A DNA stretch of 31,258 nt from a virus (taxonomy: Duplodnaviria; Caudoviricetes), in IMG/VR virus record IMGVR_UViG_3300017821_000121, positions 1 through 31,258 of that record. One strand, 5' to 3'. Positions 5,225 through 31,258 of the stretch are shown piece by piece. The notes beneath the pieces are model-generated. The model was not told the origin of the DNA. It saw only the letters and a list, made by a program, of their open reading frames with translations, and ran no database searches. Numbering within the stretch: position 1 is the stretch's first letter; every line of letters starts with the position of its first letter. A program made the position numbers and the translations under genes.

Positions 5225-5227
5225 AAA

Positions 5228-5491
5228 ATGCCCAAAGCGATTGAGTTCACGATCATCGATCCCAACACCAGCAAACGCCATAAAGCCTGCTACGACTCCA
5301 ACATCATCACCGGCGTCCAGGAGTACCGCTTTGAGGGTGGAATGCGCGCGCAGATCCTGATCGCGGGAATTCAGGGGTTGCTGCTCGACGAAGACTACGC
5401 TTCGTTTCGCAGCCGTTGGTTGGAGGCGCGCGACGGTTTGGAAGTGGTGCCCCTCGGGCTGCCGGCGCCGAAACTGCACACCGTGAGCTAA
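5228..5491 (+). CDS. Hypothetical protein
   Basis: Tightly packed ORF with protein-like composition. Confidence 0.65.
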   Translation: MPKAIEFTIIDPNTSKRHKACYDSNIITGVQEYRFEGGMRAQILIAGIQGLLLDEDYASFRSRWLEARDGLEVVPLGLPAPKLHTVS

Positions 5492-5494
5492 CCT

Positions 5495-5707
5495 GTGTTC
5501 TCCCTCTTTCCAAAAAAAACCGCAGAGCGCAGCGAAATGACGCGCCTGGTGCAAGAGCAGGAAGAATGGCAGCGGCAGCGCGCGGACCGGCGAATGTGGG
5601 CCATCGAGCAGGCGAATTTTACCTGCGCAGATGGTTCCGTGGACGATGTGATGCGCGCCGCCCGGCGATTCTATCGCGAAGCCTTTAACGAGGAGTGGAG
5701 CGAATGA
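5495..5707 (+). CDS. Hypothetical protein
   Basis: GTG start; ATGA overlap with next gene. Confidence 0.6.
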   Translation: MFSLFPKKTAERSEMTRLVQEQEEWQRQRADRRMWAIEQANFTCADGSVDDVMRAARRFYREAFNEEWSE

Positions 5708-5952
5708 GCAGCTTTCATGGAAAGAAGTGCGATTGGTGTGGAGCTGAAGAACGCGAACCATCACCGCAGGAGGAAACTGCGATGTTGGCCAGAGCTGATC
5801 AACAGCCTCCGCCGCCGACTTGGTTGACTCTTTTTGGTCCCGTCGATTTTTCGGATCTTTGTCCGAGCTGCGCACGTGTGGCGATCCTCGGGATGAAACA
5901 TGCCAAAGTGATCCGCGCGCTAATCATGGATCATCAGGAAAGAAGCACATGA
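5704..5952 (+). CDS. Zn-finger hypothetical protein
   Basis: CDWC...CPSC; ATGA overlaps at both ends. Confidence 0.65.
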   Translation: MSSFHGKKCDWCGAEEREPSPQEETAMLARADQQPPPPTWLTLFGPVDFSDLCPSCARVAILGMKHAKVIRALIMDHQERST

Positions 5953-6515
5953 CCGACCAGGAGCTGATGCAATCCATCAAGACGAAGTGGGGCGAGCTGC
6001 TGGATACCACGTGCAAAACTTCCAGCGTCCCGCCGGCGTTTCTCGCGGCCTTGATCGCCAACGAATCCGGCGGCAACCCGGACGCCAAACGTTTCGAGCC
6101 CGCGGTGATGACGCAACTTTTCGCGGTGCTGCTGAACCGCAAAGCGGCCTACGGCTCGATCGGCCGCTCGGACATCATCGCCTATGCCGCGCAAGTGGCC
6201 TCCACGCTGAACATGCAGCTCATTGTGGCGCTCGATCAGCTCTCGACGTCGTGGGGCCTGGTGCAAATCATGGGCTACGAAGCGATCAGCTATCGCACCA
6301 ACGGCGTGGCCGCGCTGACGCAACCCACTTCGGAAATGGTGATCGCGCTGCGCATGCTGGCGGCGTTTGCGGCGCACAATTCGCTGTGGCTGGCCAAGGA
6401 TTTTTCCCAGCTCTTCGATTGCTGGAACACCGGCCGGCCGCACTCGCCCACCGCGGATCCCAACTACATTCCCAACGGCCTGCGCCGCATGGAGCTGTAC
6501 CAGGCGCTGCCGTGA
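5949..6515 (+). CDS. Endolysin, lysozyme-like fold (SLT/N-acetylmuramidase type)
   Basis: LAALIANESGG catalytic Glu, RFEP, STSWGLVQIMG, WN.G..Y motifs; ATG at 5949. Confidence 0.85.
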   Translation: MTDQELMQSIKTKWGELLDTTCKTSSVPPAFLAALIANESGGNPDAKRFEPAVMTQLFAVLLNRKAAYGSIGRSDIIAYAAQVASTLNMQLIVALDQLSTSWGLVQIMGYEAISYRTNGVAALTQPTSEMVIALRMLAAFAAHNSLWLAKDFSQLFDCWNTGRPHSPTADPNYIPNGLRRMELYQALP

Positions 6516-6694
6516 GCGCCAACGTGCAGATGGTCTGCGACGCGCTCGACGAATGCGGCCGCACCGTGGTGTTTGTTTTCCTGGTGGCTGGCGGCATCAC
6601 CCTGATCGTTTGCACCGGCGCGCTTTTCCTGGGACTAGCGATCCGCTACACGGTGCGCAGGCTGGTGCAGCGCTTCGCCGAGCGGCGGATTTGA
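6512..6694 (+). CDS. Small membrane protein
   Basis: GTGA overlap with endolysin stop; long hydrophobic segment then basic tail. Confidence 0.6.
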   Translation: MSANVQMVCDALDECGRTVVFVFLVAGGITLIVCTGALFLGLAIRYTVRRLVQRFAERRI

Positions 6695-6709
6695 AAGGGA
6701 GTTATATAG

Positions 6710-7012
6710 ATGGTTCCCGGGCCTGATTTGAGACAGTGCGATTGGCCGGATGGCAAAGGCGGCAAGTGTAAACACTGGGCCACGAATCGACTCAGCAACG
6801 GATTCGCTTACTGTCTGAGACACTTCCTCGCCGTGCAGGAGTTGCGAAGCTGGCTATGCAGACGCAAATGCCCCGATCTTTCGCACTGTAAATCGTTGGT
6901 TCCTGCGCGGTGCAAATATATTGGCCCGAAACCCGCTCGCAAACACAGAAGTAGGTGGCCACGATTCACCATTGTTATGAGAGAAAGAGCGCAGGGGAAA
7001 ATGTTGGTCTAG
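6710..7012 (+). CDS. Cys-rich basic hypothetical protein
   Basis: AAAGGGAG RBS; C..C..C..H pattern. Confidence 0.5.
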   Translation: MVPGPDLRQCDWPDGKGGKCKHWATNRLSNGFAYCLRHFLAVQELRSWLCRRKCPDLSHCKSLVPARCKYIGPKPARKHRSRWPRFTIVMRERAQGKMLV

Positions 7013-7048
7013 ATTTTCGCGGGACGCTGTGCTTAGGATGCGAAAGCC

Positions 7049-7330
7049 ATGAAGGACAACTGGTTCAATCACAACACCGACAAGTTGCTGCTGTATTCCC
7101 TGGTGATCCTCGGCGGCGTTTTTATGATGCACGTGATCCATCACGGCGGCTCGGACGCGCAACTGCTGACCTGGCTGGAAAACGCGTTCTCCACGGTGCT
7201 TGGCGCGCTAATCCTGATCCTCACCGGCCGCATCGCCCGCGCCGGCAACGGCAGCACCAACGGCACGCCGCCACCGCCGCCAGGTCCGGACACTTTGAAC
7301 GTTACGCTGACGCCGGAGGACAAAAAATAA
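7049..7330 (+). CDS. Holin-like two-TM protein
   Basis: Two TM helices near the endolysin; Pro-rich C-terminal tail. Confidence 0.65.
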   Translation: MKDNWFNHNTDKLLLYSLVILGGVFMMHVIHHGGSDAQLLTWLENAFSTVLGALILILTGRIARAGNGSTNGTPPPPPGPDTLNVTLTPEDKK

Positions 7331-7468
7331 GTGGCGCGCCATCGGCTCACCAGGGAAGAACAGATCCGGGGATTAGAAAAGGCGCTGGCGAATCCGAAGA
7401 CCCCGAAACAGTTTCTGCCCGCGATGCGGGAGAGGTTGCAACAGTTGAAAAGGAGAACTACCCCATGA
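7331..7468 (+). CDS. Small basic protein, 45 aa (not in ORF track)
   Basis: GGAGG upstream, GTG start, MARHRLTREEQIRGLEKALANPKTP...; ATGA overlap with 7465. Confidence 0.6.
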   Translation: MARHRLTREEQIRGLEKALANPKTPKQFLPAMRERLQQLKRRTTP

Positions 7469-7878
7469 GACGCCGAGGATTTCTGAATTCGTTGCTGTCG
7501 TTTGTCGCGTTTTTCTGCGGCTTAGGCGGTCTGCTGCTGCTGGCTGGCTGCACGCCGCCGGAGAAAGCCGCGTATGAAGCGATCGTGTCGTCCAACGCGT
7601 TCCTGAAAAGCGTGAAAACGCAGCACCCGGAATGCACCACAGCGGTGCCGGCAGCTACGCAAGTGTGCGCGCTTTTGAAGCAGGCCACGGCCGCGAAGGA
7701 CACGTTGATCGACGCCACGGAGGAGTACTGTGCCGGACCCACGTTCAACAATGGCGGCGCGTGCAATCCGCCGGCAAAAGGAACGCCCGCGGCCACGCAA
7801 GCGCTCGCAAAACTGCAAGCCGCGCTGACGAGCTACGACCAGACGGCCGCAGACCTGAAAGGCGCGCTCGGGAAGTGA
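7465..7878 (+). CDS. Lipoprotein with twin-arginine-like signal (spanin candidate)
   Basis: AAGGAG RBS; MRRRGFL, hydrophobic core, LAGC lipobox; helical mature part with 4 more Cys. Confidence 0.75.
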   Translation: MRRRGFLNSLLSFVAFFCGLGGLLLLAGCTPPEKAAYEAIVSSNAFLKSVKTQHPECTTAVPAATQVCALLKQATAAKDTLIDATEEYCAGPTFNNGGACNPPAKGTPAATQALAKLQAALTSYDQTAADLKGALGK

Positions 7879-8255
7879 AACTGTATAGCGTCCATTTCGA
7901 AGTCTCCATCCGCGAGATCGGCCCGCTGGAAGAGCCGGAGCCGACGCCGGAAACAATTCCGCTCACGGAGGGAATTTCCAAAGATTCCCCGCTCCACGAC
8001 GCAGCGGAGCTTTTCGAACGCATGCAGGCGAAAGGCATGTTTCCCGGCCCAATGCCATATCTACGCCGCCGCCGTAGAGGAGCGCTCGCCCTTGGTCCCG
8101 GTGACGTTCTTTCCACTGGCGATGGGATGTCGATCAATGAAACGGTGGAGACGACTGCCGATAGCTTCGAAGAGCTGCAGGGCATCCTGGCAAAGTTTCA
8201 TGCCATTGCGGCCGCGCTGTCCACGGACGCGCAGCTCGACAAACTCGCAAGATGA
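7875..8255 (+). CDS. Hypothetical protein
   Basis: GTGA overlap with the lipoprotein stop. Confidence 0.65.
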   Translation: MKLYSVHFEVSIREIGPLEEPEPTPETIPLTEGISKDSPLHDAAELFERMQAKGMFPGPMPYLRRRRRGALALGPGDVLSTGDGMSINETVETTADSFEELQGILAKFHAIAAALSTDAQLDKLAR

Positions 8256-8282
8256 GATCCCAACTACACACGTGAGCAGTAA

Positions 8283-8435
8283 CCGCGATTGGAGGCGGGC
8301 AGCAGTTCTCGAAAAACGCAGTAGTCGGTTGCAGTCCGATGCGGGACCCCACTGTGACGAAAGTCCGTTGGCAACATCGCTAGGGACCGGCGAAGGGAAA
8401 GTGCGGAACTTCGGGATGCTCGCCTCTGGCCGCGG
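8283..8435 (+). ncRNA. Putative structured RNA or cis-element
   Basis: 8283-8301 pairs with 8417-8435 (19 positions, four G-U, one mismatch); internal GAC-GAAA-GTC and GTCGG/CCGAT hairpins; intergenic. Confidence 0.45.
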
Positions 8436-8461
8436 CAAAAGAGAATTTTCCTGGAGGACAC

Positions 8462-8632
8462 ATGGTCAGTCTATTGGACATCGGGTTTGGGTTGGTGGAG
8501 ATGGTGCTGCAGAAGTACAACCAGAAGCTGCCGGCGGAGCTGGTGACCGCGGGACAAGCTGCGGTGGACGCCTGGGCCGCGCACCGCGATGACGTGGTGA
8601 GCAAGGCCAACCTGGAAGCGCAGCGCGGCTAG
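8462..8632 (+). CDS. Small amphipathic protein, 56 aa (not in ORF track)
   Basis: GGAGG RBS; MVSLLDIGFGLVEMVLQKY...EAQRG. Confidence 0.7.
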   Translation: MVSLLDIGFGLVEMVLQKYNQKLPAELVTAGQAAVDAWAAHRDDVVSKANLEAQRG

Positions 8633-16405: not shown

Positions 16406-17926
16406 TTACTCTTCGTCGTCGGAGGATGTGTCGGAGGGCAGCTTCTCTTTCCACTCGTGGTGCCAGCGGTAAAGTGTGGGTCGCTTCAGGATCGAGAACG
16501 CGCGAAGCACTTCGGTTGGGGGCGCGCCATTCGAGAACATCTCAAACACGGTTTTCTTCATTGCGCTCATCGCCGGCCTGGTGAGCCACTCCGCGCCGTT
16601 TTCCGGTGAAGTGCAGAGCTGCGCTTCGAAGGGCACGCCCCAATGCGGGTCCCGTAACTCGTGGCGGATCTTCTCCACGTTCAGCACCACGCGCAGCCCT
16701 TGTGAGCGCCGATAGTCGCCTGGGTGGTCCAGCTTGATGTAGGAGTCCAGGATGTGCACCTGCGCCGAGTCGCCAAGGAAATCTCCGCCTTTGCCGGCGT
16801 GCTGCAGAAAGCACACGGTGATGCCGCGCGTGTTCAGATCGATGAACCACTCTTTCAGTTCCGCCACTTGACGCGACTGGTCCTCTTGCGCGGCGCTCCA
16901 AAGCGTCGAGATGTTGTCGAGCACGAGAAATTGGAAACCTTCGCCGGCAATCACTTCTTCGATATGCTTGCGATCTTTCGGTTCTTTGACGCTCGGCCGC
17001 CAGGCGTGCGCGCACCGCGGAGCCCGTGCGATCCGCTTGTAATCTTTGGAGACTGTGGCCAGATCGGAAAAATTCGGCTCCACCTTCATGTGTTTGCCGA
17101 TCAGCTTGAGCCGCTCGCGGATTTTCTCTCCATGCATTTCGCCGTAGAGGTACAGCGTGCGCATTGGACCGTAAACCGGCCAATGTCCGCCCGGTCCTTC
17201 ATGCCCGCCGAACAAACAATCCAAACCGTGCGCGACGCAGAAAGCCATGTAGCTGGCGATCCAGCTCTTTCCCCACCCAGCCCACGAAAAAATCATGAAC
17301 GTGCCGGCGCGCGTCACCAGCGGCTCGATCATCGGATCCGCTTTGGGAAGTTCCAAGGTCAGCAGCTCGCTGTAAGGCACCACCACGATGGGATTCTGCG
17401 TGCTGGAGTTCCCTTCCGTGATTGCCGTGATTGAATTCTTGGCGTTGTCCACGATGGCGTCTGCGCCGGCTTCGGCTTCGAGGGCGCGCATCTGGATGTT
17501 GTGCGTGACGTGGATCAGATTTCGCAGTTTGGCTTTTTCAATGATGATGCCCGCGTAGTGCTTGACGTTCGACACCCGCGGTATGCCATCGATGAGCGAA
17601 GCGAGATAGGGCGCGCCGCCGGCTTCCTGGAGCTTCCCTTCCCCCTGCAGATGTTCCGACAGCGTGACGAGATCGATCCCGCCGATCTCCTCGCCTTTTT
17701 TTGCCACTTCGAGCGTGAGTTTCAGGATTCCAGAAAACACCGCTTTGTGCTGCGGGAGGAAAAAATCGTCAACCTTCAGCGCGCCGGCGATCTCTTTGAT
17801 CGCGGCGTTATTGATCAGCAGCGCGCCTAGAAGACTGCGCTCGGCGTCTAGGTTGGAAGGGAGCCTCGGTAGGATGTCAGCGGGAAGCGGAGTGGTGCGA
17901 TTTCGATGAAAAGGGACTGTTGACAT
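16406..17926 (-). CDS. Replicative helicase: DnaB N-terminal domain + RecA/AAA_25-type ATPase + C-terminal HTH
   Basis: LPSNLDAERSLLGALL, DFF..QH..VF, GG.PYLASL (DnaB-N); SWAGWGKS Walker A, LYLYGEM, LVLDN Walker B, QHAGK; RPTLYRW HTH-like. Confidence 0.85.
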   Translation of the reverse strand: MSTVPFHRNRTTPLPADILPRLPSNLDAERSLLGALLINNAAIKEIAGALKVDDFFLPQHKAVFSGILKLTLEVAKKGEEIGGIDLVTLSEHLQGEGKLQEAGGAPYLASLIDGIPRVSNVKHYAGIIIEKAKLRNLIHVTHNIQMRALEAEAGADAIVDNAKNSITAITEGNSSTQNPIVVVPYSELLTLELPKADPMIEPLVTRAGTFMIFSWAGWGKSWIASYMAFCVAHGLDCLFGGHEGPGGHWPVYGPMRTLYLYGEMHGEKIRERLKLIGKHMKVEPNFSDLATVSKDYKRIARAPRCAHAWRPSVKEPKDRKHIEEVIAGEGFQFLVLDNISTLWSAAQEDQSRQVAELKEWFIDLNTRGITVCFLQHAGKGGDFLGDSAQVHILDSYIKLDHPGDYRRSQGLRVVLNVEKIRHELRDPHWGVPFEAQLCTSPENGAEWLTRPAMSAMKKTVFEMFSNGAPPTEVLRAFSILKRPTLYRWHHEWKEKLPSDTSSDDEE

Positions 17927-19953: not shown

Positions 19954-20910
19954 ATGCAAACGCAACCCACAACGCTGAACTTTCCGCTTCCCGATGGGGA
20001 TCCCGGCGTCGCGCTGACCATCCAGAAAATGTCCGCGCTGATCGACGCGGGGAAATCCAGCGCGATGGTGCACGCGCAGGCGCAAACGATCCTGAACCAG
20101 TACCACGTGCCGGCGTACGCCTGGGAGCGCCAAGCGCGCGCGATCTACGAGTGGGTGCGCCGCAACATCACGTTCACTCCGGATCCGGTGGGCAAAGAAG
20201 GCGTGCAAGACGCGGAGTGGACGCTGACCTATCGCCGCGGCGATTGCGACTGCATTTCGGTGCTGATGTGCTCGCTGCTGGAAACGATCGGCACGCGTTG
20301 CCGGCTGATGACCGTGGCCAGCGATCCGCGCGATCCGCAGCAGTTCAGCCACGTCTATCCGCAGGCGCTCGTCAACGGCCGCTGGATCTCCGTGGACGTC
20401 GCGCGGCGCTCGCCGGCGTTTGGCTTGTCGCCGTCGCGCTACTTTCGCAAGCGCGCCTGGAGCGTGCACTCCAATGAGTACGCAGACCTATCTTTTTATG
20501 GCGCGGAGGTGGGCATGAGAGGACTAGGCATCACGACGCCAGCGCTCCAGCCGCCGCTGAACTATTCCGCGCCGCCGGCGCCTTCGCGCTTCTATCGCCA
20601 GCGCCGCCGCTTGCGCGGACTGCGCGGCCTGGGACAAGACAACGGCGTGGATTGGAGTGCAATCTCGCAAGCGGTTCAGGTGGGAACCACTGGCGCCGCC
20701 AACATCATCGCCGCATCGCGCGCGAGTCCCTACAACCTGGTGCCCACCACGTACGCGCCGCTCGGAACTACGGGTGCAGTGCTGCAATCGCCGTATGGCT
20801 ACAGCTCGATGGCCACGCCCACCGCCGGATCTTTCATGGGCATCAGCACCACCACGCTGCTGCTGCTCGGGGTCCTGGGCATCGGCATCTTTGCCCTGGC
20901 CAATCGATGA
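19954..20910 (+). CDS. Transglutaminase-like cysteine protease with C-terminal TM anchor
   Basis: IYEWVRRNI.F..D, GDCDC (Cys at 20245), FSHVY (His at 20350), W.SVD (Asp at 20395); MRGLG and LRGLRGLGQ motifs; terminal TM. Confidence 0.85.
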   Translation: MQTQPTTLNFPLPDGDPGVALTIQKMSALIDAGKSSAMVHAQAQTILNQYHVPAYAWERQARAIYEWVRRNITFTPDPVGKEGVQDAEWTLTYRRGDCDCISVLMCSLLETIGTRCRLMTVASDPRDPQQFSHVYPQALVNGRWISVDVARRSPAFGLSPSRYFRKRAWSVHSNEYADLSFYGAEVGMRGLGITTPALQPPLNYSAPPAPSRFYRQRRRLRGLRGLGQDNGVDWSAISQAVQVGTTGAANIIAASRASPYNLVPTTYAPLGTTGAVLQSPYGYSSMATPTAGSFMGISTTTLLLLGVLGIGIFALANR

Positions 20911-20923
20911 CCTGGAGATAATC

Positions 20924-21661
20924 TTGCCGACCGCGCCACAAATCTTTTTGCCCGCCTCGTACCGCCGGCCGTTTGCGCGCCGGCGACGCGGCTCGCTGAT
21001 GCGCCTCGGCACGTTTGGCCTCGTCGCTGTGCCGCCATCGTCTGCCGGACGGCCGCCGATCTGTCCCGCGTGGGGCTGCGGTCCCGTTCGCATCGGTCCC
21101 GAACCATTTCGTCCACCAACCACCCCAACGCCAGTCACGACAGCCGGCACTCCGGTGCCGGCGTCGTTTCCCACCAATCAAATCTTCGTGAACACGGACG
21201 GCTCACAGTGGATGTACTCCGCGTCGCAAGGCACGTGGATCAACGTCGGCACACCGTACAACCCGAACGCGCCTTCCGCCAGCTCGCCAGTAAGCGCGGC
21301 GCCTGGAACGGTCGCCGTGCCTGTCATATCCACCGCGCCTAATGTCGCCGGCACTCCCGTGCCTGCGAACTATCCCACCAATCAGATCTACGTGAATTCC
21401 GACGGCTCGCAGTGGGTGTATTCCGCTGCAACCAATTCCTGGGTCAACATGGCGCTCACGACCAGCACGAGCAGCCCCACGACGTCCACCGGCGCACCCA
21501 TCAGTGTTTCCGTTGCCACGCCCACGAGCGCGTCTCCGTACGACAGCTTAATCAACTTCGCCACCGAGCAATCGTTACTGCCCGGCGTGCCCAACTGGCT
21601 GATCGCGATCGGCGCAGTGATCGCCGTCAAGATGGCCGGACAAATGGGAGGGAGGCGCTGA
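20924..21661 (+). CDS. Tail-anchored virion membrane protein with internal ~35-aa repeat
   Basis: GGAG then TTG start; two copies of GTPVPA..PTNQI.VN.DGSQW.YSA...W.N; C-terminal TM. Confidence 0.75.
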   Translation: MPTAPQIFLPASYRRPFARRRRGSLMRLGTFGLVAVPPSSAGRPPICPAWGCGPVRIGPEPFRPPTTPTPVTTAGTPVPASFPTNQIFVNTDGSQWMYSASQGTWINVGTPYNPNAPSASSPVSAAPGTVAVPVISTAPNVAGTPVPANYPTNQIYVNSDGSQWVYSAATNSWVNMALTTSTSSPTTSTGAPISVSVATPTSASPYDSLINFATEQSLLPGVPNWLIAIGAVIAVKMAGQMGGRR

Positions 21662-22549
21662 ATGGCTTACTACGCTCCACCGCAGGGAGATCTCACCGCT
21701 GCAGTCGCTTGGGGATTGCAAAAGCAGAGTCTCAGCGGCTTGGGAATTCTTCCCACGGTCAACGTGCGCACGCCGCGCGCTATTCCTGTGGCGATGGGTG
21801 CCGCGCGCCGGCGTTTCGAGGAAGAAACGCAAAGCGCCATGACCGGCATGGGCATCATCAGGGTAAAAGTTCCGCGGCTGCCCGTTCCCGCGGCGGTCAC
21901 ATTCCAAGCTGCGCGATCGCGCGCCGCGCTTTCCGGATTGGGTGCGGGCCGTGGCGGCGGTGCGCACATTCACGCCGAAGGTGCGATGCCCGTGACTGCC
22001 GGCGTGCGCCGCCAATCGGCGCCCTTCACTGCGCCCGGCGGCGGCTACAGCCAGATTCCGGGATTTCTTCCCCCGGTGCGCGTGCCCCTTCGCGGGCTTC
22101 GCGGACTGGGCCAGGATCCGTACACCGATGCGCTCAACTTAATCAACGCGAGCGACAACGTGGTGGCCAGCCCGGACGGCTCGATCGTCCAGGACATGAA
22201 CACCGGCTACATTTTGAACACGCAGACCGCTCAGATCCTGGACGCAAACGGCAACTACATTCCGCAAACCGCCGCTGGCGCGTACACGGTTGCAGCACCA
22301 ACCGGAACCGTTCCGACATCAAGCGCAGGCGCGGTGAATCCCTACGGGCTCGCCCCGACATCGCCAAGCAAGACCACGATCAATCCGGTCACTGGCGCGA
22401 TCAGCGTTATACAGCAGCCGCGCGTGGCTGCCGCGGCCCCGCTGACTATTTCGCCCACCTATCTGCTCATCGGTGGCGGCGTGTTGCTGCTGGCCATGAT
22501 GGGCGGAAAACGCCGGCGCAATCCGCGCAGGAGAAATCGCCGTGGCTAG
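21662..22549 (+). CDS. Tail-anchored virion membrane protein
   Basis: GGAGG RBS; four [LM]xG[LM]G motifs; TM then RRRNPRRRNRRG. Confidence 0.8.
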   Translation: MAYYAPPQGDLTAAVAWGLQKQSLSGLGILPTVNVRTPRAIPVAMGAARRRFEEETQSAMTGMGIIRVKVPRLPVPAAVTFQAARSRAALSGLGAGRGGGAHIHAEGAMPVTAGVRRQSAPFTAPGGGYSQIPGFLPPVRVPLRGLRGLGQDPYTDALNLINASDNVVASPDGSIVQDMNTGYILNTQTAQILDANGNYIPQTAAGAYTVAAPTGTVPTSSAGAVNPYGLAPTSPSKTTINPVTGAISVIQQPRVAAAAPLTISPTYLLIGGGVLLLAMMGGKRRRNPRRRNRRG

Positions 22550-23033
22550 AAGCGCCTATGTGGTTCCCACACCTGAAGCGTCGCTGACCGCAACGGCCGG
22601 GCGCGCGCTTCAGGGCTTTTCTCTCGGCTGCGATGGCTGTTCGGTGAAAGGTTTGGGCTGCAGCTCGTGCCGGCAGCTTCTGCAAAGCCAAGGCGCGCCC
22701 ACGGCGCTCAGTTATTACATTCGCGGCGTGCCCGCGCCCGGATCTCTGCTCAGCGGCTACGTGTTACCCCCATCACTGAGCGGCCTGGGTGCGGGATCCG
22801 GACCTGGGCGCTTCAATCGCGCGGTGGCGCGCGGCATCTACACGGAGCCGTTTGTGTCGCGGCCGTTCGCCGGCAGCCGCGGCCTCGGACAGCTTGAGGT
22901 GGATCCCACGCTGCTGATTGCCGGCATTGGTGTGCTGGCCCTCGGAATGTTCCTGCTCGGCGGCAAGCATGTGCCGCGAATTAAACGCCGCGTGCGGCGT
23001 GCACGCAGGCGCGTCAGGAGTTTCCTGCCGTGA
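22542..23033 (+). CDS. Tail-anchored virion membrane protein
   Basis: AGGAG RBS; GLG motifs, two CxxC; TM plus Arg-rich tail. Confidence 0.75.
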   Translation: MARSAYVVPTPEASLTATAGRALQGFSLGCDGCSVKGLGCSSCRQLLQSQGAPTALSYYIRGVPAPGSLLSGYVLPPSLSGLGAGSGPGRFNRAVARGIYTEPFVSRPFAGSRGLGQLEVDPTLLIAGIGVLALGMFLLGGKHVPRIKRRVRRARRRVRSFLP

Positions 23034-23120
23034 TCGCTTTCCTGCACTACAAAACGTACTGCGGATTCTCCCACTATCTGTGCGGGCTGGATCCGTGGGG
23101 CCGGTTCCGGTGGTGAGTTT

Positions 23121-23741
23121 ATGAACTACTACGTGCGCACCCAACAAGTGCTCGCCGCGAACGCCGCGCAGACGCAGCAGCGTCTCGCCGGCATGCACGC
23201 GCTGCGCATGGGCCGCGGTTTGCGCGGCCTGGGCCAATCCACTGCCGGTTTGCCAGCGGGCTCGCAGTTGACGTACTCCGCGACGTTTCAGATCGGAGCT
23301 GGTCCCACTGGCGAGCCGCTCAGCCTTACCAGCGTCGTGCAGGCGATGAAATCCGTGCTCAGCAATAATTTCGGAATTCAGGTGGTGGGCGCCCCGTATT
23401 TGGGTCCAAACGCTGATGCGCTTCTGACCAACCAACGCCAGTTGAACATGACCGTGCTCACCCAGTCAGACAGGAATTCTTCGGACGATGTGAAGAGCAT
23501 CCTAGATGGCTTGGTCTATCAACTGGGCTCTTCCACGGTTAGCGTGTCCAGCCTTAGTTCGAGCATCAATTTGATCAACCCCGGAGTTGTGGCACCCACA
23601 TCTCCGCCGGTCATTGATCCAAACACCGGATTGCCGGTGGGACAGCCGCAACCGTTCGACCTGACGCAGTTCCTCACCGATAACTGGCCCTACTTGGTGG
23701 CCGGCGGCGCAGCTCTTCTTCTTTTCAACGAGGTGCTCTGA
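23121..23741 (+). CDS. Tail-anchored virion membrane protein
   Basis: Leader ending GRGLRGLGQ; globular domain; C-terminal TM. Confidence 0.8.
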   Translation: MNYYVRTQQVLAANAAQTQQRLAGMHALRMGRGLRGLGQSTAGLPAGSQLTYSATFQIGAGPTGEPLSLTSVVQAMKSVLSNNFGIQVVGAPYLGPNADALLTNQRQLNMTVLTQSDRNSSDDVKSILDGLVYQLGSSTVSVSSLSSSINLINPGVVAPTSPPVIDPNTGLPVGQPQPFDLTQFLTDNWPYLVAGGAALLLFNEVL

Positions 23742-24103
23742 TGCAACCTGGAGACACGGTACAGATTTTGCAAACCGACTGCGCGATTCTGCGCGTTGGC
23801 GAAGAACCCAGCCCCGGCGTGCCGCACTGGATCTACGCGGTGGTGTTCGACACGCTGAAAAACGACGCGGGCGCGATCACCGCGGCGCACGTGGAAGTGA
23901 ATCATCCGGCGAATTTCCAGCACGGCCAGCGGATCTTAGTGTCGCGCAAAAACATCCGCACACTCGACGACCTGCGCTCGCTCGAAGCGCTGCATCCGCA
24001 GAAGGATGCCGTCAAGCTGGACTTCAACCGCGCCGACCATCGCGAGCTGAACAATCTCCGCGCCGCGATCGAGCGCTGCAAACCGCAGGAGGAAGCCGCG
24101 TGA
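23741..24103 (+). CDS. Hypothetical protein (SH3-like start)
   Basis: GAGG RBS; TGATG overlap; MQPGDTVQIL. Confidence 0.7.
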   Translation: MQPGDTVQILQTDCAILRVGEEPSPGVPHWIYAVVFDTLKNDAGAITAAHVEVNHPANFQHGQRILVSRKNIRTLDDLRSLEALHPQKDAVKLDFNRADHRELNNLRAAIERCKPQEEAA

Positions 24104-24300
24104 GGATGTCGCGCATTTTTTATCTGACGTACGGCGGCTCCTGTGTGCGCGTGCCCTTAGCAAAGAAACAGGGCTTCAGCACGGAGTGGCCACACGAAAG
24201 AAGACTGATGAAGAGATGCGATAAGGCAGGTCCGCATCCTCACATTGTTGGCCGGCCACGCAGAACGCGAAAGGACCCGACGAAGATCGTGAGTAAGTAA
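24100..24300 (+). CDS. Small basic protein
   Basis: GGAGG RBS; overlaps both neighbours. Confidence 0.55.
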   Translation: MRMSRIFYLTYGGSCVRVPLAKKQGFSTEWPHERRLMKRCDKAGPHPHIVGRPRRTRKDPTKIVSK

Positions 24301-25256
24301 TGGCCGCCGCCGCCCAATTCCGGATCGAGCACGTGGCCACGACGCCGCGGGGCTGGAAGGTGCGCTCGAAAAAGAGCGGCTCGCACCTGCTGCGTTTCGC
24401 GGTGCCTCCCGGCCGGCGCAAGAAGGGGCAAGCCAAGCTGCTCGAAGTGCTGCATCCCAAGGCGGAAAAAAATCCTTCGTGCATCGTCAGCCATCGCGCG
24501 AAGAGCAACCCGGAAGAGTTGCTGGTGTTTTTGAATCCCTCAACGCTGCAGAGGAAGCGCGCCACGCGCGAGCGCGCCGCGCGGATCCGCGCCGCCCGGT
24601 TGAATCCGAAAAAGGCCACGCCGATGCGGCGCCGCAAAGATCGTCAACTGCCGAAGCCCGCGCCGCCGAAAAAAATCGCGGCCAAAAAGACGAATCGCCG
24701 GCGTCAGCGGCACAACCCAGTCAGCGAAACGGAGCAAGCGGTGCACCTCTTCGAAATTTTCCACGGCAAAGACGCGCGCGAGATCCAGGAGAAGCATATC
24801 TCCGCCGCGATGCGCAAAGACTACACCGCGCTGGGCAAGCTGATCGCCGTGGTCACCGATGATTGCGGCCTGGGCGAACGCGAAATCGCCACCAAGTGGG
24901 ACCGCTGCCCGCACATCGATTTTTCCGAAGATCACGTCACGCTGGCCAGCTCGCCGGACGGCCGCCAGCTCTACGCCATCGGCGGCAATCAGAACCTCAC
25001 CGGCTGCCTGGGCAAGTTCGAAGGCGTGGATCCCACCAAGGATTTGATTGACCTGGGCGAAGTGGCTGCGATCGTGTACGAGGCGCGAAAGATCCACGAC
25101 AACTTCGAGCCGGTGCAGTACTGCCACAAATTCGGCGGACACGGCCGCACGCGGCCCGGGTGGTTTTTCGACCGCTTGAAGAAACAGGTTTTCTTCATCG
25201 GCGGCGAATACGAAATCGACATCACGGCGAAAATCTCGCCGGGTATCGAGGGGTAG
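24300..25256 (+). CDS. Basic N-terminal region with five NP motifs plus globular C-domain (putative core protein)
   Basis: KNP, SNP, LNP, LNP, HNP in a Lys/Arg-rich N-half. Confidence 0.8.
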   Translation: MAAAAQFRIEHVATTPRGWKVRSKKSGSHLLRFAVPPGRRKKGQAKLLEVLHPKAEKNPSCIVSHRAKSNPEELLVFLNPSTLQRKRATRERAARIRAARLNPKKATPMRRRKDRQLPKPAPPKKIAAKKTNRRRQRHNPVSETEQAVHLFEIFHGKDAREIQEKHISAAMRKDYTALGKLIAVVTDDCGLGEREIATKWDRCPHIDFSEDHVTLASSPDGRQLYAIGGNQNLTGCLGKFEGVDPTKDLIDLGEVAAIVYEARKIHDNFEPVQYCHKFGGHGRTRPGWFFDRLKKQVFFIGGEYEIDITAKISPGIEG

Positions 25257-25296
25257 TGCTGACCGATTTTTTTGACGGTCCCTTTAAGGAGGACAC

Positions 25297-25530
25297 ATGT
25301 CGGAAGTTCACAACGAAGAACGGCATCCCAACGGCGTGCCGAAAACCATCCACCACTTCGACGCGACGACCGGGAAGCCGGTCTATCACCACGAAGTTGT
25401 GGAGATGGATCACAAGGAACTGGTCGCGCTAGGCCACTCCGCCGCGGAAGCCACCGCGATGATCAACGAGGCGAAGCCCAACAAGGCCAAGGGTAAGAGC
25501 TTCACCACGGTCAACGCCCAACCGATTTAA
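25297..25530 (+). CDS. Hypothetical protein
   Basis: AAGGAGG RBS. Confidence 0.75.
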   Translation: MSEVHNEERHPNGVPKTIHHFDATTGKPVYHHEVVEMDHKELVALGHSAAEATAMINEAKPNKAKGKSFTTVNAQPI

Positions 25531-25549
25531 AGGAGTTCGTTTTCGGTGC

Positions 25550-26431
25550 ATGACGCTGGCGCCACAACTCGGAATCGATCCGTACTCTCGGGCGCGGATC
25601 CTGCTGGCCACCCGGCCATCGCCGTACGTGCGCGCGCAGCACGCGCCGGTGCGCCAGCAGCGCCGACGTCGCCGCCTGAGCCTCGGCGCGCTCACGCCGC
25701 AGCAAGCGGTGGAGTCCGTGTTCCCGCAAGCCAGCGTCACCAGCACCGCCGGACACACGCAAGCCGTGTGGGATGGCTACGTGCGCGACGTCCAGGCCGG
25801 ACAGATGGTGGACGCCAGCGGCCAGCCAGCCTATTTGCCGGGCACGCAGGATTGCTCCGCCACGGGAGTGAGCACCAGCGTGAGACTGGCGCAAACGGCC
25901 AGCGGCATGGCGCTCACCGGCACAGCGATCGGCTTGACCGCGGCGGGCGTGGCTACTGCTGCGGCGCTCGCGCCGTGGACGATGGGCATCTCCGTGATCA
26001 TCGGGCTTTTCCCGCTGATCTTTGGGCATCACGCTGCAGCGGTGAAGAAAGAACAAAGCGTGCTCTGCGCCGCGGTGCCGGCCGCGAACGATTACCTGCA
26101 GATTATCGACCAGGCCGTGCAGTCCGGCCAGGCGACGCCGCAGCAGGGCCAGCAAGCATTGCAATCGCTGGTGTCCGATTTCACCAACCAGGTGGCTTCC
26201 ATCGTCAAGGGCTCCGGTCCTGGGAATTCCGGCGACTGCAACGCTGCGTGCGTGATGATCGCCGCCCTGAAGTCCATCGCGGCCTACAAGAGCAGCGTGT
26301 ACCAGGACATGATTGCGTCGGCCTCGACGTCCACCAGCGCATCCGCCTTGCCGTCGTTCGGAATCACGGGATCTTCTTCCTGGCTGCCGTGGGCGGTCGG
26401 AGCTTTTATTTTGTACGAGGTGTTTTCGTGA
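25550..26431 (+). CDS. Tail-anchored protein with internal hydrophobic hairpin (putative genome-delivery protein)
   Basis: Arg-rich leader ending LSLGA; Gly/Ala-rich hydrophobic stretch; 4 Cys; C-terminal TM. Confidence 0.75.
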   Translation: MTLAPQLGIDPYSRARILLATRPSPYVRAQHAPVRQQRRRRRLSLGALTPQQAVESVFPQASVTSTAGHTQAVWDGYVRDVQAGQMVDASGQPAYLPGTQDCSATGVSTSVRLAQTASGMALTGTAIGLTAAGVATAAALAPWTMGISVIIGLFPLIFGHHAAAVKKEQSVLCAAVPAANDYLQIIDQAVQSGQATPQQGQQALQSLVSDFTNQVASIVKGSGPGNSGDCNAACVMIAALKSIAAYKSSVYQDMIASASTSTSASALPSFGITGSSSWLPWAVGAFILYEVFS

Positions 26432-26642: not shown

Positions 26643-27275
26643 ATGCCACCAACGTTAACAGGAACGCCCGCGGACCTGATCACTTACCAGCGCGAGCTGG
26701 TACGCACGCATCAGTTCGAGCCGCTGGGCCGCATCAACAAGATCGCCATCGCGCCTTCGGACCAATGGGCGCCGATCGACGATCCCATCATCCGCAAATG
26801 GGGCCGCCTGATGGAATTTCGCTCGCAGTGGTTGCCGCTGGCGCAATCCGCGGATCGCACCATGCTGCTGATTCCCGCGCCGATGATGGACAAAAGCGGC
26901 CGCATCGGCCTGCCCGATCTGCCGGATCCCACGTGGCGGCCGGATCCCTGGACGCCCGAAGAATCGCAGGGACTGAAAGAGCGCCCGTTCGAAAAAGATT
27001 TAGCGCGGATGATTCCGCAGCGCCTCGAAGATCGCGCGGAGCGGCCCAACGGCAGGCTGGGCAAACTCGAAGGCACGAATTTTTTGGTATTTCAGCCGGT
27101 GATCAACATCGTGTTCCAGGCGGAAAAAGACCGCCAGCTCGTCGCGCAGATGTGGACCATCCAGGCGCAGTACGATCCCGGCACGCGCACGCACATGGCG
27201 CTGCTGGTGGATCCGCGCACCGGCGAATCGCTTTTCTTCGGGGGCCGCTACGACATCGCGGCCAACGAAGGATGA
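26643..27275 (+). CDS. Hypothetical protein
   Basis: AAGGAG upstream of ATG 26643. Confidence 0.75.
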   Translation: MPPTLTGTPADLITYQRELVRTHQFEPLGRINKIAIAPSDQWAPIDDPIIRKWGRLMEFRSQWLPLAQSADRTMLLIPAPMMDKSGRIGLPDLPDPTWRPDPWTPEESQGLKERPFEKDLARMIPQRLEDRAERPNGRLGKLEGTNFLVFQPVINIVFQAEKDRQLVAQMWTIQAQYDPGTRTHMALLVDPRTGESLFFGGRYDIAANEG

Positions 27276-27338: not shown

Positions 27339-28166
27339 ATGCCAACCGTGAGGCTGGTAAATCCAACTCGCCGGCGCCGCTCGCGCGCCGGCCGCAAGCG
27401 GCGTCAGCCCGCGGCCCTCCGGAAGTATTGGGCCAAGGCGCGGCGTGCAATGCGCTCGAATGCGAGCGGAGGACACATGGCAAAGAAACGTCGTAGCCGC
27501 CGCAGTGGTTCGCACCATCGCCGTCGCCGTTCCCACGCGATTGTGCATCACCGCCGGCGTCACAACCCCGCACGGTACTTGAATGTGCGCCATCGTCGGC
27601 GCGCAAACCTGAGCTTCGCGGGATTTAATACCACCGATCTGCTGTATCTCGGCGGCGGCGCGCTGGCCAACGGCGTGCTCGCCCGCGCGGTGCCGCAGAT
27701 GCTTTTGCCGCAGTACAACACCGGCTTCGCGGGTTATGGCCTGAACGCGGTAGCCGGCGGCATCGGCGCGTGGCTGATTTCCAAATTCAACAAGCGCGCG
27801 GGGCAAGGCGCCTGGATCGGCCTGATCGTCGCGCTCGGCCAACGTGTCATCGCCGATAAGTTCGGCGCGGGCACCGCGGGCGCCACCGGCGGCATGTCCG
27901 GGGATCTGGATTTCGACTTGGGTTATTACCTGAGCGATCCGTTCCCGTACGCCCAGGGCGCCAGCGCCGGTCCGTACGCGGCCTTCCCCGGCAATCCGTA
28001 TGCTCCGATGCTGCCCACGGCCAACGCAGCCGCTCCCGCACGCGCGCGGCAAACCGCAGCGCTTGTGGCCGCGGCCGCACCCGCAGCCCCTTCGGGCGGC
28101 GGTTCCAGCTCCGTGGCGATGCCCGGCGCGCAGACGCAGGCTTACCAGGCGGGGGCCTGGGGTTAG
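27339..28166 (+). CDS. Protamine-like Arg/His-rich N-terminus + Gly-rich hydrophobic helices (putative DNA-membrane linker)
   Basis: Very basic first ~90 aa with NP motifs; three hydrophobic segments; sits directly before the capsid gene. Confidence 0.75.
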   Translation: MPTVRLVNPTRRRRSRAGRKRRQPAALRKYWAKARRAMRSNASGGHMAKKRRSRRSGSHHRRRRSHAIVHHRRRHNPARYLNVRHRRRANLSFAGFNTTDLLYLGGGALANGVLARAVPQMLLPQYNTGFAGYGLNAVAGGIGAWLISKFNKRAGQGAWIGLIVALGQRVIADKFGAGTAGATGGMSGDLDFDLGYYLSDPFPYAQGASAGPYAAFPGNPYAPMLPTANAAAPARARQTAALVAAAAPAAPSGGGSSSVAMPGAQTQAYQAGAWG

Positions 28167-28293: not shown

Positions 28294-29058
28294 ATGGAAA
28301 ACCGCACTCGCGCATTTCTCAGCCGTATGTGGCGCAAAGGCGGCGGCGTTTCCGAGCACACGCATGGCGTGGAGAAAATCCAGCTCAGCGAACTCGGCCG
28401 GCCGCACGCGCGCCTCGGCAATCCCAACACCGGCGTCCCTGAAGTGCTTGTCCAGGATGTGTACGACATTTTCTTCGCCGCCGCCGGTAGCGCCTTAACG
28501 AAGTTGACGCTGTTCACCCAGCCGCTCGGCTCGATCTACAACTTCATGGGCGTCACCGCCTTCGCCAAGGGCCTGAACCACACGCTGCTGACGCAGCCCG
28601 GCATGCTGGACTCTTCGTTCAGCTACGTGGTGCGCGCCGTCTCCGTGTACGTGCAGGCGCTGCAGGGCTCCACGCACCCCAACCTGCATCCGGAAGATCT
28701 GAACAATTTCCTCAGCACCTATGCGGAGTTGCAGATCAACCGCAAGCCCTGGCTGCAGGGCAACCTCGGCTGGTATCCCGGCGCAGGCGGCCCGGTGTTC
28801 AGCGGCTTCGGCTCGCTGACCGCGCCGGTTTCGGCGTTTTCCAGTTCCAACGGTGTGGCGTACCGCAATAACGCGTACGCGCTGCCCGGCGGGATCTTCA
28901 TCAACCCGCAGGAAAACTTCAACGTGGTCATCGACCCCACGCAAAACGCTGGCGGCGCGCCATCCATGCTCGCCGCGGCCGGCAACCCCACGGGCGTTGG
29001 GGCATCCGGGCTTTCCGCCTGGTGGCGTTTCATGGGGCAGCTCGTCAGAGTCGCTTAG
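28294..29058 (+). CDS. Probable major capsid protein, single jelly-roll type
   Basis: AAGGAG RBS; beta-strand pattern (VYD, LTLFTQP, YVVRAVSVYV, IFINPQENFNVVI, terminal WRFMG..R); flanking stem-loops; fold inferred by eye. Confidence 0.6.
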   Translation: MENRTRAFLSRMWRKGGGVSEHTHGVEKIQLSELGRPHARLGNPNTGVPEVLVQDVYDIFFAAAGSALTKLTLFTQPLGSIYNFMGVTAFAKGLNHTLLTQPGMLDSSFSYVVRAVSVYVQALQGSTHPNLHPEDLNNFLSTYAELQINRKPWLQGNLGWYPGAGGPVFSGFGSLTAPVSAFSSSNGVAYRNNAYALPGGIFINPQENFNVVIDPTQNAGGAPSMLAAAGNPTGVGASGLSAWWRFMGQLVRVA

Positions 29059-29264: not shown

Positions 29265-29729
29265 ATGGCTTTGCAAACGTGCCCCACCTGCAGCGGCGCC
29301 GGCGCCGTGCAAAACGTCAAAACCGGCCAGGGCCAGCAGTGTCCCGCGTGCTCCGGCAACGGCGTGGTTTCCGGCGGCTTCGACGATCAAGATTTCTGGT
29401 ATCCCATCAACCCCGTGCAGCTCACCGCCAACCAGGTTGGCGTGATCGCCACGGTGACGATCGACAACGATGCGGATTTCCTCTGCGACCGTTTCATCTC
29501 CAGCTCCACGGGACTCTACAGCATCGATCTCTACGACAAGTTCCGCTCACGGCACTTCAGCCCGAGCCCGATCAATAGCGAAAATTTCGCCGGCACCGCG
29601 CAGCTTCCGCTGTGGCTGCCCAATCCCTTCATCATCCGCAAAAACGCGGTGGTCCAGGGCACGTTCAACGATCGCTCTGCCGCAAACAACACGATCCAGT
29701 TCGCGCTGGTCGGCCGGAAACTGCTGTAG
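29265..29729 (+). CDS. Probable single jelly-roll capsid/penton protein with N-terminal CxxCxGxG zinc finger
   Basis: CPTCSGAG...CPACSGNG; beta-rich domain paralogous to 29758. Confidence 0.6.
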   Translation: MALQTCPTCSGAGAVQNVKTGQGQQCPACSGNGVVSGGFDDQDFWYPINPVQLTANQVGVIATVTIDNDADFLCDRFISSSTGLYSIDLYDKFRSRHFSPSPINSENFAGTAQLPLWLPNPFIIRKNAVVQGTFNDRSAANNTIQFALVGRKLL

Positions 29730-29757: not shown

Positions 29758-30330
29758 ATGTCCACCAGAGGCGCACCGATTTTCAGCACGCAGTTTGCTC
29801 ACCGGCGGAAGAACATCATCCGCCTGCCCGAACCGAAGAGCGTGGCGATTATCCGGCAGATGCTGCAGGATCCCTTCCCGTTCTTCATCAACATTTTCGA
29901 CACCGCGGAACAGTTCGCGGAAATCGGCGCGGCCAGCGGCATTTTCAGCGCCAGCGGGATCGCCGCGCTGGCCTCCGCCGAGCAGCGCGCCAACGTCCCG
30001 GAAGATTTCTGGCTGGTGGCGCTGATTGCTTCTTCTGTTGTCGTTGGCGGCGGGGGCGGCGGTCCGGATCCTCCCAACTTCGCGTTTCAGCTTTATCACA
30101 CGCGCAACGTCGGCGAATCCGATGAGCAGGGCTTCATTCATCAGCAGAGCCCGATCCTCGGCGAAAACATGTGCGGCACCGCGCAAAACCCGCTGTTCTT
30201 GATGGAGCCGAAATTCTTGCCGCGCAACACGGAGATTTCCTGCAGCGTGCAGAACCTGCAGAACGCCGACAACGCGATCCAGATCTGCCTGATGGGCTAC
30301 TTGGGCGAGCCCGCGGGAGGACTCACATGA
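29758..30330 (+). CDS. Probable single jelly-roll minor capsid protein
   Basis: SPILGENMCGTAQNPLFL.EP...N.IQICLMG aligns with SPINSENFAGTAQLPLWLPNP...NTIQFALVG of 29265. Confidence 0.6.
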   Translation: MSTRGAPIFSTQFAHRRKNIIRLPEPKSVAIIRQMLQDPFPFFINIFDTAEQFAEIGAASGIFSASGIAALASAEQRANVPEDFWLVALIASSVVVGGGGGGPDPPNFAFQLYHTRNVGESDEQGFIHQQSPILGENMCGTAQNPLFLMEPKFLPRNTEISCSVQNLQNADNAIQICLMGYLGEPAGGLT

Positions 30331-31037
30331 GCCGGAAACGCTTCCAGGAAGAATGCCGCCAGTGGATCGAAAAGGATCCGTTCTTCGGCGCGCTTGAACG
30401 CGCCAATATCTTGCCTCCCCGTCCGGCCATGGGCGGAGGAGGCACGGGAACGGGCGGCGGCAGCGGCGGCGGAGGAGGAACGGCCGGCGGCGGATCTGTG
30501 CCCACCGCGGCAACGGCTGCGCCGGAAGCCACCGGCGCCGGCACCGCGGGCATCGGCAATCTTCTGCCGTGGCTCTATCCCACCGCGGATTTCAAAAACG
30601 TGGACAAGTTCGGCGCGGTGGCGTTGCCGGCGATCGGCGCCTGGGCAGACATCCTGGTGTACAGCGTCGAGCAGGGCCGCTGCCAAAAAATCACGCAGCT
30701 CGGCATCGACTTTGTGCAGAACGGCGGCACAGCCTACGTTCAGGGCACGGTGCCTCCACAACTCCGGTTCTTCATCGGCGTGAATGGCAGCCCCGCGATC
30801 GCGGGCCGGCCGGGCCGTCCCTTCGCGGACTATTCCGGGCCAAACTTCGCGTTTCTTCCCGGCGCGGTCAGCGCGCCCACGCCGGTCAACGGGCTGATGC
30901 TGCGCGAGCGCGACGAGCTGCACATCGCGGTTTTCAACGTTTCAGTCGTGGTGACCGGGAAAGAAAGCCTTGCGGCGCGCGCACTGGCTTACAGCTTCTC
31001 CAAGAAATACTGGTCCAAGCTGATGGGCACGCAGTAA
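30327..31037 (+). CDS. Probable jelly-roll vertex protein with poly-Gly linker
   Basis: GGAGG RBS; Gly-rich run at 30432-30495 then a beta-rich domain. Confidence 0.55.
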   Translation: MSRKRFQEECRQWIEKDPFFGALERANILPPRPAMGGGGTGTGGGSGGGGGTAGGGSVPTAATAAPEATGAGTAGIGNLLPWLYPTADFKNVDKFGAVALPAIGAWADILVYSVEQGRCQKITQLGIDFVQNGGTAYVQGTVPPQLRFFIGVNGSPAIAGRPGRPFADYSGPNFAFLPGAVSAPTPVNGLMLRERDELHIAVFNVSVVVTGKESLAARALAYSFSKKYWSKLMGTQ

Positions 31038-31053: not shown

Positions 31054-31258
31054 ATGGAAATTCGAAACTGGAAATTGGTGGCGGCGCTCTCCCTGTTTTC
31101 GATTTTCTATTTTCCAATTTCCACGAGCGCGCAGATTACCACCGTCACCGGCCAAGTGCTCGACGTGAACGGCATTCCGTACGCCGGCGCGCAGCTCAAG
31201 GCGCAGCTCGTCACCACCGCGGGATCGCCGGTCACCGGCCAACCCACCATCACCAACA
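31054..31258 (+). CDS. Spike/receptor-binding protein 1, 5' part (truncated by contig end)
   Basis: GGAGG RBS; MEIRNWKLVAALSLFSIFYFPISTSA|QITTVTGQVLDVNG... Confidence 0.85.
   Translation, partial: MEIRNWKLVAALSLFSIFYFPISTSAQITTVTGQVLDVNGIPYAGAQLKAQLVTTAGSPVTGQPTITN
31128..31258 (+). repeat. Near-identical direct repeat of 1009-1139
   Basis: Direct alignment at offset 30119. Confidence 0.9.

Follow-up and report, generated by a model that had tools for sequence, protein, structure and literature searches.

A transglutaminase-like enzyme and a recurrent Leu/Met-Gly tag in membrane-anchored proteins of a bacterial virus: a candidate virion maturation system

The enzyme and the recurrent motif in the structural operon

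The window analysed here is the entire 31,258-base contig of IMG/VR record IMGVR_UViG_3300017821_000121, a nearly complete and circular virus genome, in which a plus-strand operon begins at position 19954, crosses the contig end and extends to about 9120. The first structural gene of this operon (19954-20910) encodes a transglutaminase-like enzyme, and a short peptide motif, in its strict form [LM]xG[LM]G and here called the tag, recurs in this enzyme and in several C-terminally membrane-anchored (C-anchored) proteins of the same genome. An initial annotation of this DNA had proposed that the enzyme processes virion membrane proteins at the motif. Unless otherwise indicated, all the genes and features described below lie on the plus strand.

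The enzyme, with 318 residues, combines its catalytic domain with a leader, a conserved helix and a C-terminal anchor. It matches PF01841 over residues 59-148 (E 5.5e-15, 56 bits against a curated cut-off of 23), and no other Pfam family, adenain included, is matched at E<=0.05. The predicted fold spans residues 4-191, and its structural matches include 3kd4 (Z 15.5, root-mean-square deviation 3.0, 151 residues aligned), factor XIII (Z 11.3), PNGase (Z 11.0) and TG2/TG3 (Z 10-11), as well as LapG, PeiP/PeiW and CPR-C4 (Z 9-10, 9-14% identity). There are 179 homologues at E<=1e-10; residue counts refer to 118 full-length ones, that is, the 120 listed minus two incomplete sequences. The catalytic triad, encoded between 20245 and 20397, follows the Cys-His-Asp order, and Cys98 (20245-20247), His133 (20350-20352) and Asp148 (20395-20397) are each invariant (118/118). 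Profile, triad and fold all identify the enzyme as a member of the transglutaminase-like superfamily.

Two tags are found in the enzyme itself, both in low-confidence linkers that follow the catalytic domain in the structure model. Site 1, MRGLG (20515-20529), stands right behind the last strand of that domain; its Leu/Met is kept in 110/118 homologues, usually as part of a conserved D-x-x-G-[LM], after which the residues vary, and its conservation may be partly structural. Site 2, LRGLRGLGQD (20611-20640), has its core, Leu226-Gly227, at 20629-20634, in a linker of low pLDDT (predicted local distance difference test), and [LMI] followed by [GA] occupies this position in all 118 homologues, with Gln or Asp next in 98 and a conserved Asp thereafter. 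Behind it, the conserved helix (residues 230-263) and the anchor (residues 297-315), encoded at 20641-20898, show a column conservation of 0.62 vs 0.38 in the spacer ahead of site 2, and a hydrophobic C-terminal segment is present in 117/120 homologues. Among 57 distinct enzymes that are complete and fused, 56 bear a tag in the tail; the other one has GFG there. Seven related loci (L066, L067, L068, L071, L072, L073 and L077) have a split enzyme, with the catalytic domain as an open reading frame (ORF) of its own; in L066 and L077 this ORF ends where the catalytic domain ends, and the next one encodes a tagged, anchored protein. Because of these split genes and of the tags in the tails, the window enzyme reads as a catalytic domain followed by a membrane protein with a leader of the usual kind. 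In L074 and L075 the tails are long, unanchored and rich in GLG/FG.

Seven genes carry the tag or its core, namely those at 4658, 19954 (the enzyme), 20927, 21662, 22542, 23121 and 25550. Counting the strict motif outside the anchors, with shuffles within each protein as the null, these carriers hold 8 copies vs 0.151 expected (8 being reached in 0/20,000 shuffles), and the 38 other ORFs (6,635 residues) hold none vs 0.55 expected. The strict copies are confined to four of the seven carriers; those at 4658, 20927 and 25550 have the LG core alone, as the initial annotation had recognised in calling their variants weaker. Moreover, all 13 copies that it listed were recovered at the positions given, in frame and in real plus-strand genes, and the recurrence that it noted is borne out as an excess over background. 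A compositional artefact is ruled out, since the shuffles preserve composition. The two copies of LRGLRGLGQD do differ in codons, with 22/30 bases and 3/10 codons identical, which rules out a common DNA repeat as the source of the motif. The DNA pattern of this peptide has a single match in viral contigs, out of frame and in an unrelated tailed phage (L001), which is attributed to chance. A scan of the loci with single proteins gave no result, alignments being required.

Among the carriers, the gene at 20927-21661 starts at TTG 20927 (not at 20999) and encodes a C-anchored protein that has homologues and two internal repeats, and whose Arg-rich leader ends in MRLGTFG (20999). The C-anchored product of 21662-22549, which begins MAYYAPP and thus with a YxxP element, has tags at 21731, 21839, 21929 and 22088 and an Arg-rich tail containing RRNP. 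That of 22542-23033, also C-anchored, starts at GTG (with YVVP) and has tags at 22644, 22776 and 22875, the last of them a few residues ahead of the anchor, followed by a long Arg-rich tail; a GGAG site precedes each of the two non-ATG starts. The leader of the C-anchored protein at 23121-23741 ends at LRGLGQ (23220-23237), with a predicted cut after Gly38, and that of the C-anchored protein at 25550-26431 at RRRRRLSLGA (25676). Finally, 4658-5224 encodes a C-anchored lytic transglycosylase (PF18896, E 6.4e-22, residues 36-123) whose basic leader ends in LGALGD (4721), directly ahead of the SLT transglycosylase domain. The motif had been said usually to end an Arg-rich leader, which holds for 7/13 copies (at least three Arg/Lys in the preceding 15 residues) and fails for the remainder. 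Likewise, the transmembrane helix said to end all seven carriers is clear in five; in 23121 and 25550 this anchor is short and weak, with KD19 values of 1.15 and 1.17 (1.69-2.19 in the other five), and homologues of this weak pair score higher.

The tag and the enzyme in related viruses

The conservation of the tag was measured in a held-out set of 37 out of 84 loci (L002-L085), from which the record of the window itself was excluded, as were duplicates and short contigs. In these loci 116 C-anchored proteins, the enzyme not being counted, were called automatically with starts assigned by rule, so that a few shadow ORFs are possible. They contain 46 strict motifs vs 2.0 expected (0/300 shuffles), which extends the enrichment to homologues, and 113 soluble homologues contain 6 vs 2.5 expected (12/300 shuffles). 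With a looser pattern, more occurrences than expected are seen in 35 of the 36 loci having such C-anchored proteins. The tag is found mostly near the start, with 105/156 occurrences within the first 30% of the protein, and Arg plus Lys make up 11% of the sequence ahead of the last tag vs 2.6% behind it.

The alignments also place the tag with respect to domains. In the 23121 family its last Gly, Gly38 in the window protein, is invariant (12/12), preceded by Leu, Met, Val or Ile and followed by Gln or Asp; leader length ranges between about 10 and 65 residues, and about 7 residues past the Gly the conserved domain begins. The 18 aligned homologues of 25550 have LGA at this point (L in 12, G in 13, A in 13), with the conserved domain next. 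Furthermore, homologues of the non-anchored capsid-module protein at 30327-31037 carry the tag in their leaders in 7/19 listed loci, as L[AS]GLGQ in L080, L081 and L083 and as [LM]GQD in L047, L050, L054 and L084; the motif is thus not limited to tail-anchored proteins, as had been supposed. Taking together 23121, 25550, the enzyme and other families, one short site bounds conserved domains in several structural-module proteins. The tag separates basic leaders of variable sequence from the conserved domains that follow, which is the anatomy of a pro-peptide.

A second element is found at the N-termini of the C-anchored proteins: M-x(0-2)-Y occurs in 53/116 vs 14 expected, and YxxP within the first 10 residues in 26/116 vs 2.7 expected, neither of them in the soluble homologues. 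In the window this aromatic element appears at the starts of 21662 and 22542, and inside the enzyme at 20563.

As regards co-occurrence, which the initial annotation had proposed to test for motif and protease, eight loci were found through the capsid gene; five extend far enough upstream and all five have the enzyme, the other three ending short. Across 19 distinct loci the distances between enzymes and between capsid proteins are correlated (0.88, 0/5,000 permutations) and the two trees share their main groups, which shows the enzyme and the capsid gene to be co-inherited. The enzyme profile has no match in P23-77, HHIV-2, HCIV-1, PRD1 or PM2, and the 34 C-anchored proteins of these five membrane viruses contain 2 G[LM]G vs 5.4 expected under uniform masking.

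The only clear homologue of the enzyme in 50,697 phage records is gp34 of the cultured phage SSIP-1 (tblastn E 3e-8, profile E 3e-25), which is described in a review as membrane-containing, with a circular 44 kb genome and the entry 'single jelly roll?' (PMC6260650). Gp34 heads the structural genes of SSIP-1 and is annotated as 'structural protein', as are gp37 and gp53; for gp34 neither a function nor processing is annotated, and by its label the enzyme may be part of the particle. Like the window enzyme, gp34 has a tag-like RARGMGE behind its catalytic domain and then a C-terminal anchor, and two database homologues of gp34 have DGLGI and RGLGQ in the same linker. In addition, gp36, gp37, gp52 and gp53 contain G[LM]G inside their first 36 residues, and gp41 and gp44, like proteins of the window virus, have Asn-Pro repeats, here RENP/HENP/AQNP. 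There are also differences: identity to the window enzyme is about 31%, over the catalytic domain only, the capsid sequences are not alignable (hhalign probability 0.7% and 0.1% against gp45 and gp46), and SSIP-1 has among its structural genes a Walker A protein (gp40), which the window virus lacks.

A putative maturation protease and competing explanations

The transglutaminase-fold enzyme is probably a virion maturation protease that removes leaders at Leu/Met-Gly and releases itself from its anchor. As to the initial proposal that it processes virion membrane proteins, conservation, a site at domain boundaries, co-inheritance, the tags in the enzyme's own linker and the layout of SSIP-1 all speak for it; this support is circumstantial, and cutting is inferred from it. 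The carriers would be virion membrane proteins, to judge from their operon position, their anchors and the annotation of SSIP-1 gp34, gp37 and gp53, and enzyme and substrates would share one topology, with the catalytic domain and the leaders on the same side of the membrane. The leaders, often beginning with M-x(0-2)-Y or YxxP, continuing with an Arg-rich stretch and then with one or more xG[LM] triplets, would act in assembly and be removed afterwards. The bond cut would most likely be the one after Gly, with Leu/Met at P2, Gly at P1 and Gln/Asp as the new N-terminus, since the pair that never varies is L/M-G and a hydrophobic residue at P2 is what papain-like folds typically recognise; a cut before Gly is the second choice. 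The enzyme would probably free its own catalytic domain in the same manner, with a predicted cut after Gly227 at site 2, and the helix and anchor (20641-20898) would be the membrane protein remaining after self-processing. The 22542 product would be scarcely more than an anchor and an Arg-rich tail.

The motif had been matched to the consensus of the adenovirus protease (AVP), (M/I/L)xGx|G; copies in the window do match, but the consensus is not supported as the determinant. At site 2 the Gly two positions upstream, which the adenovirus rule needs, is present in 62/118 homologues and the full pattern in 37/118 (by cluster, 6/14 at 60% identity and 5/6 at 50%), and the 38 ORFs outside the carriers contain the pattern 18 times. 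Because [LMI][GA] is kept in 118/118, vs 37/118 for the AVP pattern and 50/118 for Gln as the next residue, the apparent determinant of the tag is L/M-G, with Gln dispensable. The last count also bears on cross-linking by a true transglutaminase via the Gln of GLGQ, raised as an alternative in the initial annotation: Gln is indeed the commonest residue after the tag, 3.4-fold enriched, and the fold matches include factor XIII and TG2/TG3, but Asp takes its place at the homologous site in 48/118 and Ala follows the tag in 13/18 members of the 25550 family, which makes cross-linking hardly credible. If the tag served membrane targeting or helix packing through Gly, with the enzyme uninvolved, this would explain why it is nearly confined to C-anchored proteins (6 vs 2.5 expected in the soluble homologues); against this, it lies in hydrophilic, basic stretches predicted as disordered and far from the anchor, it is also present in leaders of non-anchored homologues, and the anchored proteins of the five enzyme-less membrane viruses are not enriched, so that this explanation is very improbable.

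The two remaining alternatives keep a role for the enzyme or for its binding. It could cut the tag and pass the acyl-enzyme to an amine or lipid (transpeptidation), or acylate the new N-terminus, building a membrane-capsid network, since transamidases, arylamine N-acyltransferases and an amide synthase have this fold, and conservation extends to the residues behind the tag (Q/D, then D). However, the leader, which is the piece to be transferred, is poorly conserved, and a conserved acceptor was not identified among the proteins analysed; such transfer chemistry is considered quite unlikely. Somewhat less unlikely, and still a minority view, is that tag and leader form an uncut sorting or docking signal for an assembly factor (the capsid protein, the core protein or the enzyme as binder), the enzyme acting elsewhere, for instance on the host envelope at entry. 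Tandem copies, such as the four in 21662 and the xG[LM] triplets, would suit avidity, the YxxP element provides a second N-terminal signal, the fold relatives PeiP/PeiW cut cell wall, and the SSIP-1 homologue is by annotation a virion protein. A two-residue invariant core placed exactly at the border between leader and domain, with leaders varying about six-fold in length, nevertheless suits a scissile bond better than a binding epitope, and so does the recurrence of this core in the enzyme, where it separates the catalytic domain from the anchor.

Several observations count against proteolytic maturation. The fold group also holds acyltransferases, cross-linking enzymes, amidases and inactive members, so that the reaction is not fixed by the fold, and the model places both of the enzyme's tags in disorder, outside the active site. 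The strict motif is present in only 35/116 anchored proteins and about 20 are without a clear tag; locus L017 is under expectation, and the loci are mutually related, their counts being non-independent draws. Enrichment in SSIP-1 is borderline (4 vs 1.56 expected, 125/2,000 shuffles) and under the first anchor cut-off it is not significant (2 vs 1.41). Among the related loci no relative without the enzyme was found in which the joint loss of enzyme and tag could be seen, and ORF18 of P23-77, a virus without an enzyme match, is C-anchored and has SQGLGS at residue 14.

The proposed system would work like adenovirus maturation but is not an adenain system. AVP belongs to clan CE and has its His before its Cys; the window enzyme has the PF01841 fold, the Cys-His-Asp order and a different family, both it and its substrates are membrane-anchored, the core is L/M-G and the host is bacterial. 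The likeness consists in conserved domains bounded by short sites, which in adenovirus are protease sites (PMC12517501). A precedent for a transglutaminase-homologous leader peptidase is given by the B proteins of lasso peptide systems: the B/B2 peptidase is a cysteine protease of this homology that cleaves off a leader containing a YxxPxL element and reads the leader's penultimate residue (PMC10368454). The enrichment of YxxP at the N-termini of window-type proteins recalls this system, from which the window virus differs in that the Pfam family of the lasso peptidase is not matched, the putative substrates are membrane proteins of 100-350 residues, YxxP is found in only 26/116 of the anchored proteins, and there is no cyclase; nor did family searches of the window proteins identify a leader-recognition protein of the lasso type. 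LapG, PeiP/PeiW and CPR-C4 are, like the window enzyme, of the shared fold with a Cys-His-Asp type site, and they are hydrolases; none of them is known to be a virion maturation enzyme.

No literature joining transglutaminases with jelly-roll or membrane-containing phages was found, in a search that covered mostly open-access papers. In a review on jelly-roll virus lineages the maturation protease is treated as an acquisition of the eukaryotic stage (PMC6260650), and the word 'protease' does not occur in a survey of prokaryotic double jelly-roll genomes (PMC5894146). The present analysis contributes the measured core of the tag, shows that neither the adenovirus rule nor the Gln rule holds, and adds controls from viruses without the enzyme as well as the Asn-Pro motif described below. 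If the maturation reading is true, bacterial viruses with single jelly-roll capsids evolved proteolytic maturation of multiple substrates on their own, many transglutaminase-like phage genes that now lack an assignment would gain a function, and a short-tag protease with possible laboratory use would be at hand. The predictions are at residue level and can be directly tested in a cultured phage, SSIP-1.

Capsid module, Asn-Pro proteins and genome setting

The gene at 28294-29058 encodes a predicted single jelly-roll major capsid protein, whose basic N-terminal arm ends in RLGNP. Its model (pLDDT 79) has one beta-barrel at residues 43-255, viral jelly rolls top two libraries, and the best solved matches are those of SPV1 (Portogloboviridae, Z 7.2) and of the Halopanivirales HHIV-2 (6.4) and P23-77 (VP17, 5.8); these scores, all below Z 8, support the single jelly-roll fold and assign no family. 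The Halopanivirales (P23-77, HHIV-2, HCIV-1) are unlike the window virus in having neither an enzyme match nor tag enrichment. An Atlas search with the capsid protein returned unnamed clusters only, and its BFVD match, I1ZBH9 (TM 0.52), is also unnamed and has 211 residues, the same length as SSIP-1 gp46. A packaging ATPase was not recognised, there being no [GA]xxxxGK[ST] at a conserved position in the structural module of this genome, which is missing some 130 bases; the sole match to a P-loop family in the window is a DnaB-like AAA_25 gene on the minus strand (16406-17926), outside that module. SPV1, the best capsid match, is not known to have a packaging ATPase. The capsid-module protein at 29265-29729 has an N-terminal zinc-finger-like CxxCxGxG pair, found in some homologues and not in others.

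The second motif, a basic residue with Asn-Pro, is found above all in two genes. The basic protein of 24300-25256 has repeated [RKHE]x?NP motifs ahead of a conserved domain of unrecognised family; 24 homologues contain 101 copies vs 10 expected, and the last copy in the protein stands just before the domain. This domain (24717-25253, 180 residues), with invariant Gln, Tyr, Lys and His in 18 homologues, could be a second enzyme; it has no match in Pfam or PDB, and hhalign against the C-terminus of SSIP-1 gp43 gives a probability of just 1.8%. The product of 27339-28166 is an Arg/His-rich probable core protein with such motifs (28 vs 3.9 expected in 13 homologues), and the motif was also observed in the tail of 21662-22549 and at the start of 4658-5224.

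Joining these elements, it is conceivable, though doubtful, that bacterial viruses with a single jelly-roll capsid and a membrane form a widespread lineage, represented in culture by SSIP-1, whose particles mature by means of a self-processing, membrane-tethered protease of the transglutaminase fold that removes bipartite leaders (YxxP, Arg-rich stretch, L/M-G), with R-x-N-P marking the DNA-core proteins and apparently no packaging ATPase. This would be an independent, prokaryotic two-address code in the adenovirus style.

Related contigs of about 30 kb share the order of genes, in which the enzyme is followed by four or five C-anchored genes and then by 24300, 25550, 26643, 27339, the capsid gene and three capsid-module genes. 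The proteins of 26643-27275 and 23741-24103 are conserved and soluble, without a family match in searches of the Pfam, PHROGs and Atlas type (Atlas gave no match for 26643), and the 23741 homologue shifts its position between genomes. PHROGs has no family for any structural-module gene. The metagenome-assembled genome (MAG) labels of the homologues cover several phyla; the genome collection searched yielded one genuine 3.5 kb MAG contig and one weak match, and neither a provirus nor a host.

The gene at 31054 runs on into the frame at 3-941, from which the genome is read as a circle, and about 130 bases are absent, judging from the start of the paralogous gene 953, which is 92-95% identical (regions 26-141 and 31128-31258). 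The first 60 bases (1-60) form a palindrome, seemingly an artefact of assembly. The minus strand holds, besides the DnaB-like gene, a large gene without a known family. Finally, the stretch 4658-8632, with two lytic transglycosylase-like genes (4658, anchored and tagged, and 5949, soluble) and small membrane or lipoprotein-like genes nearby, is a probable lysis block.

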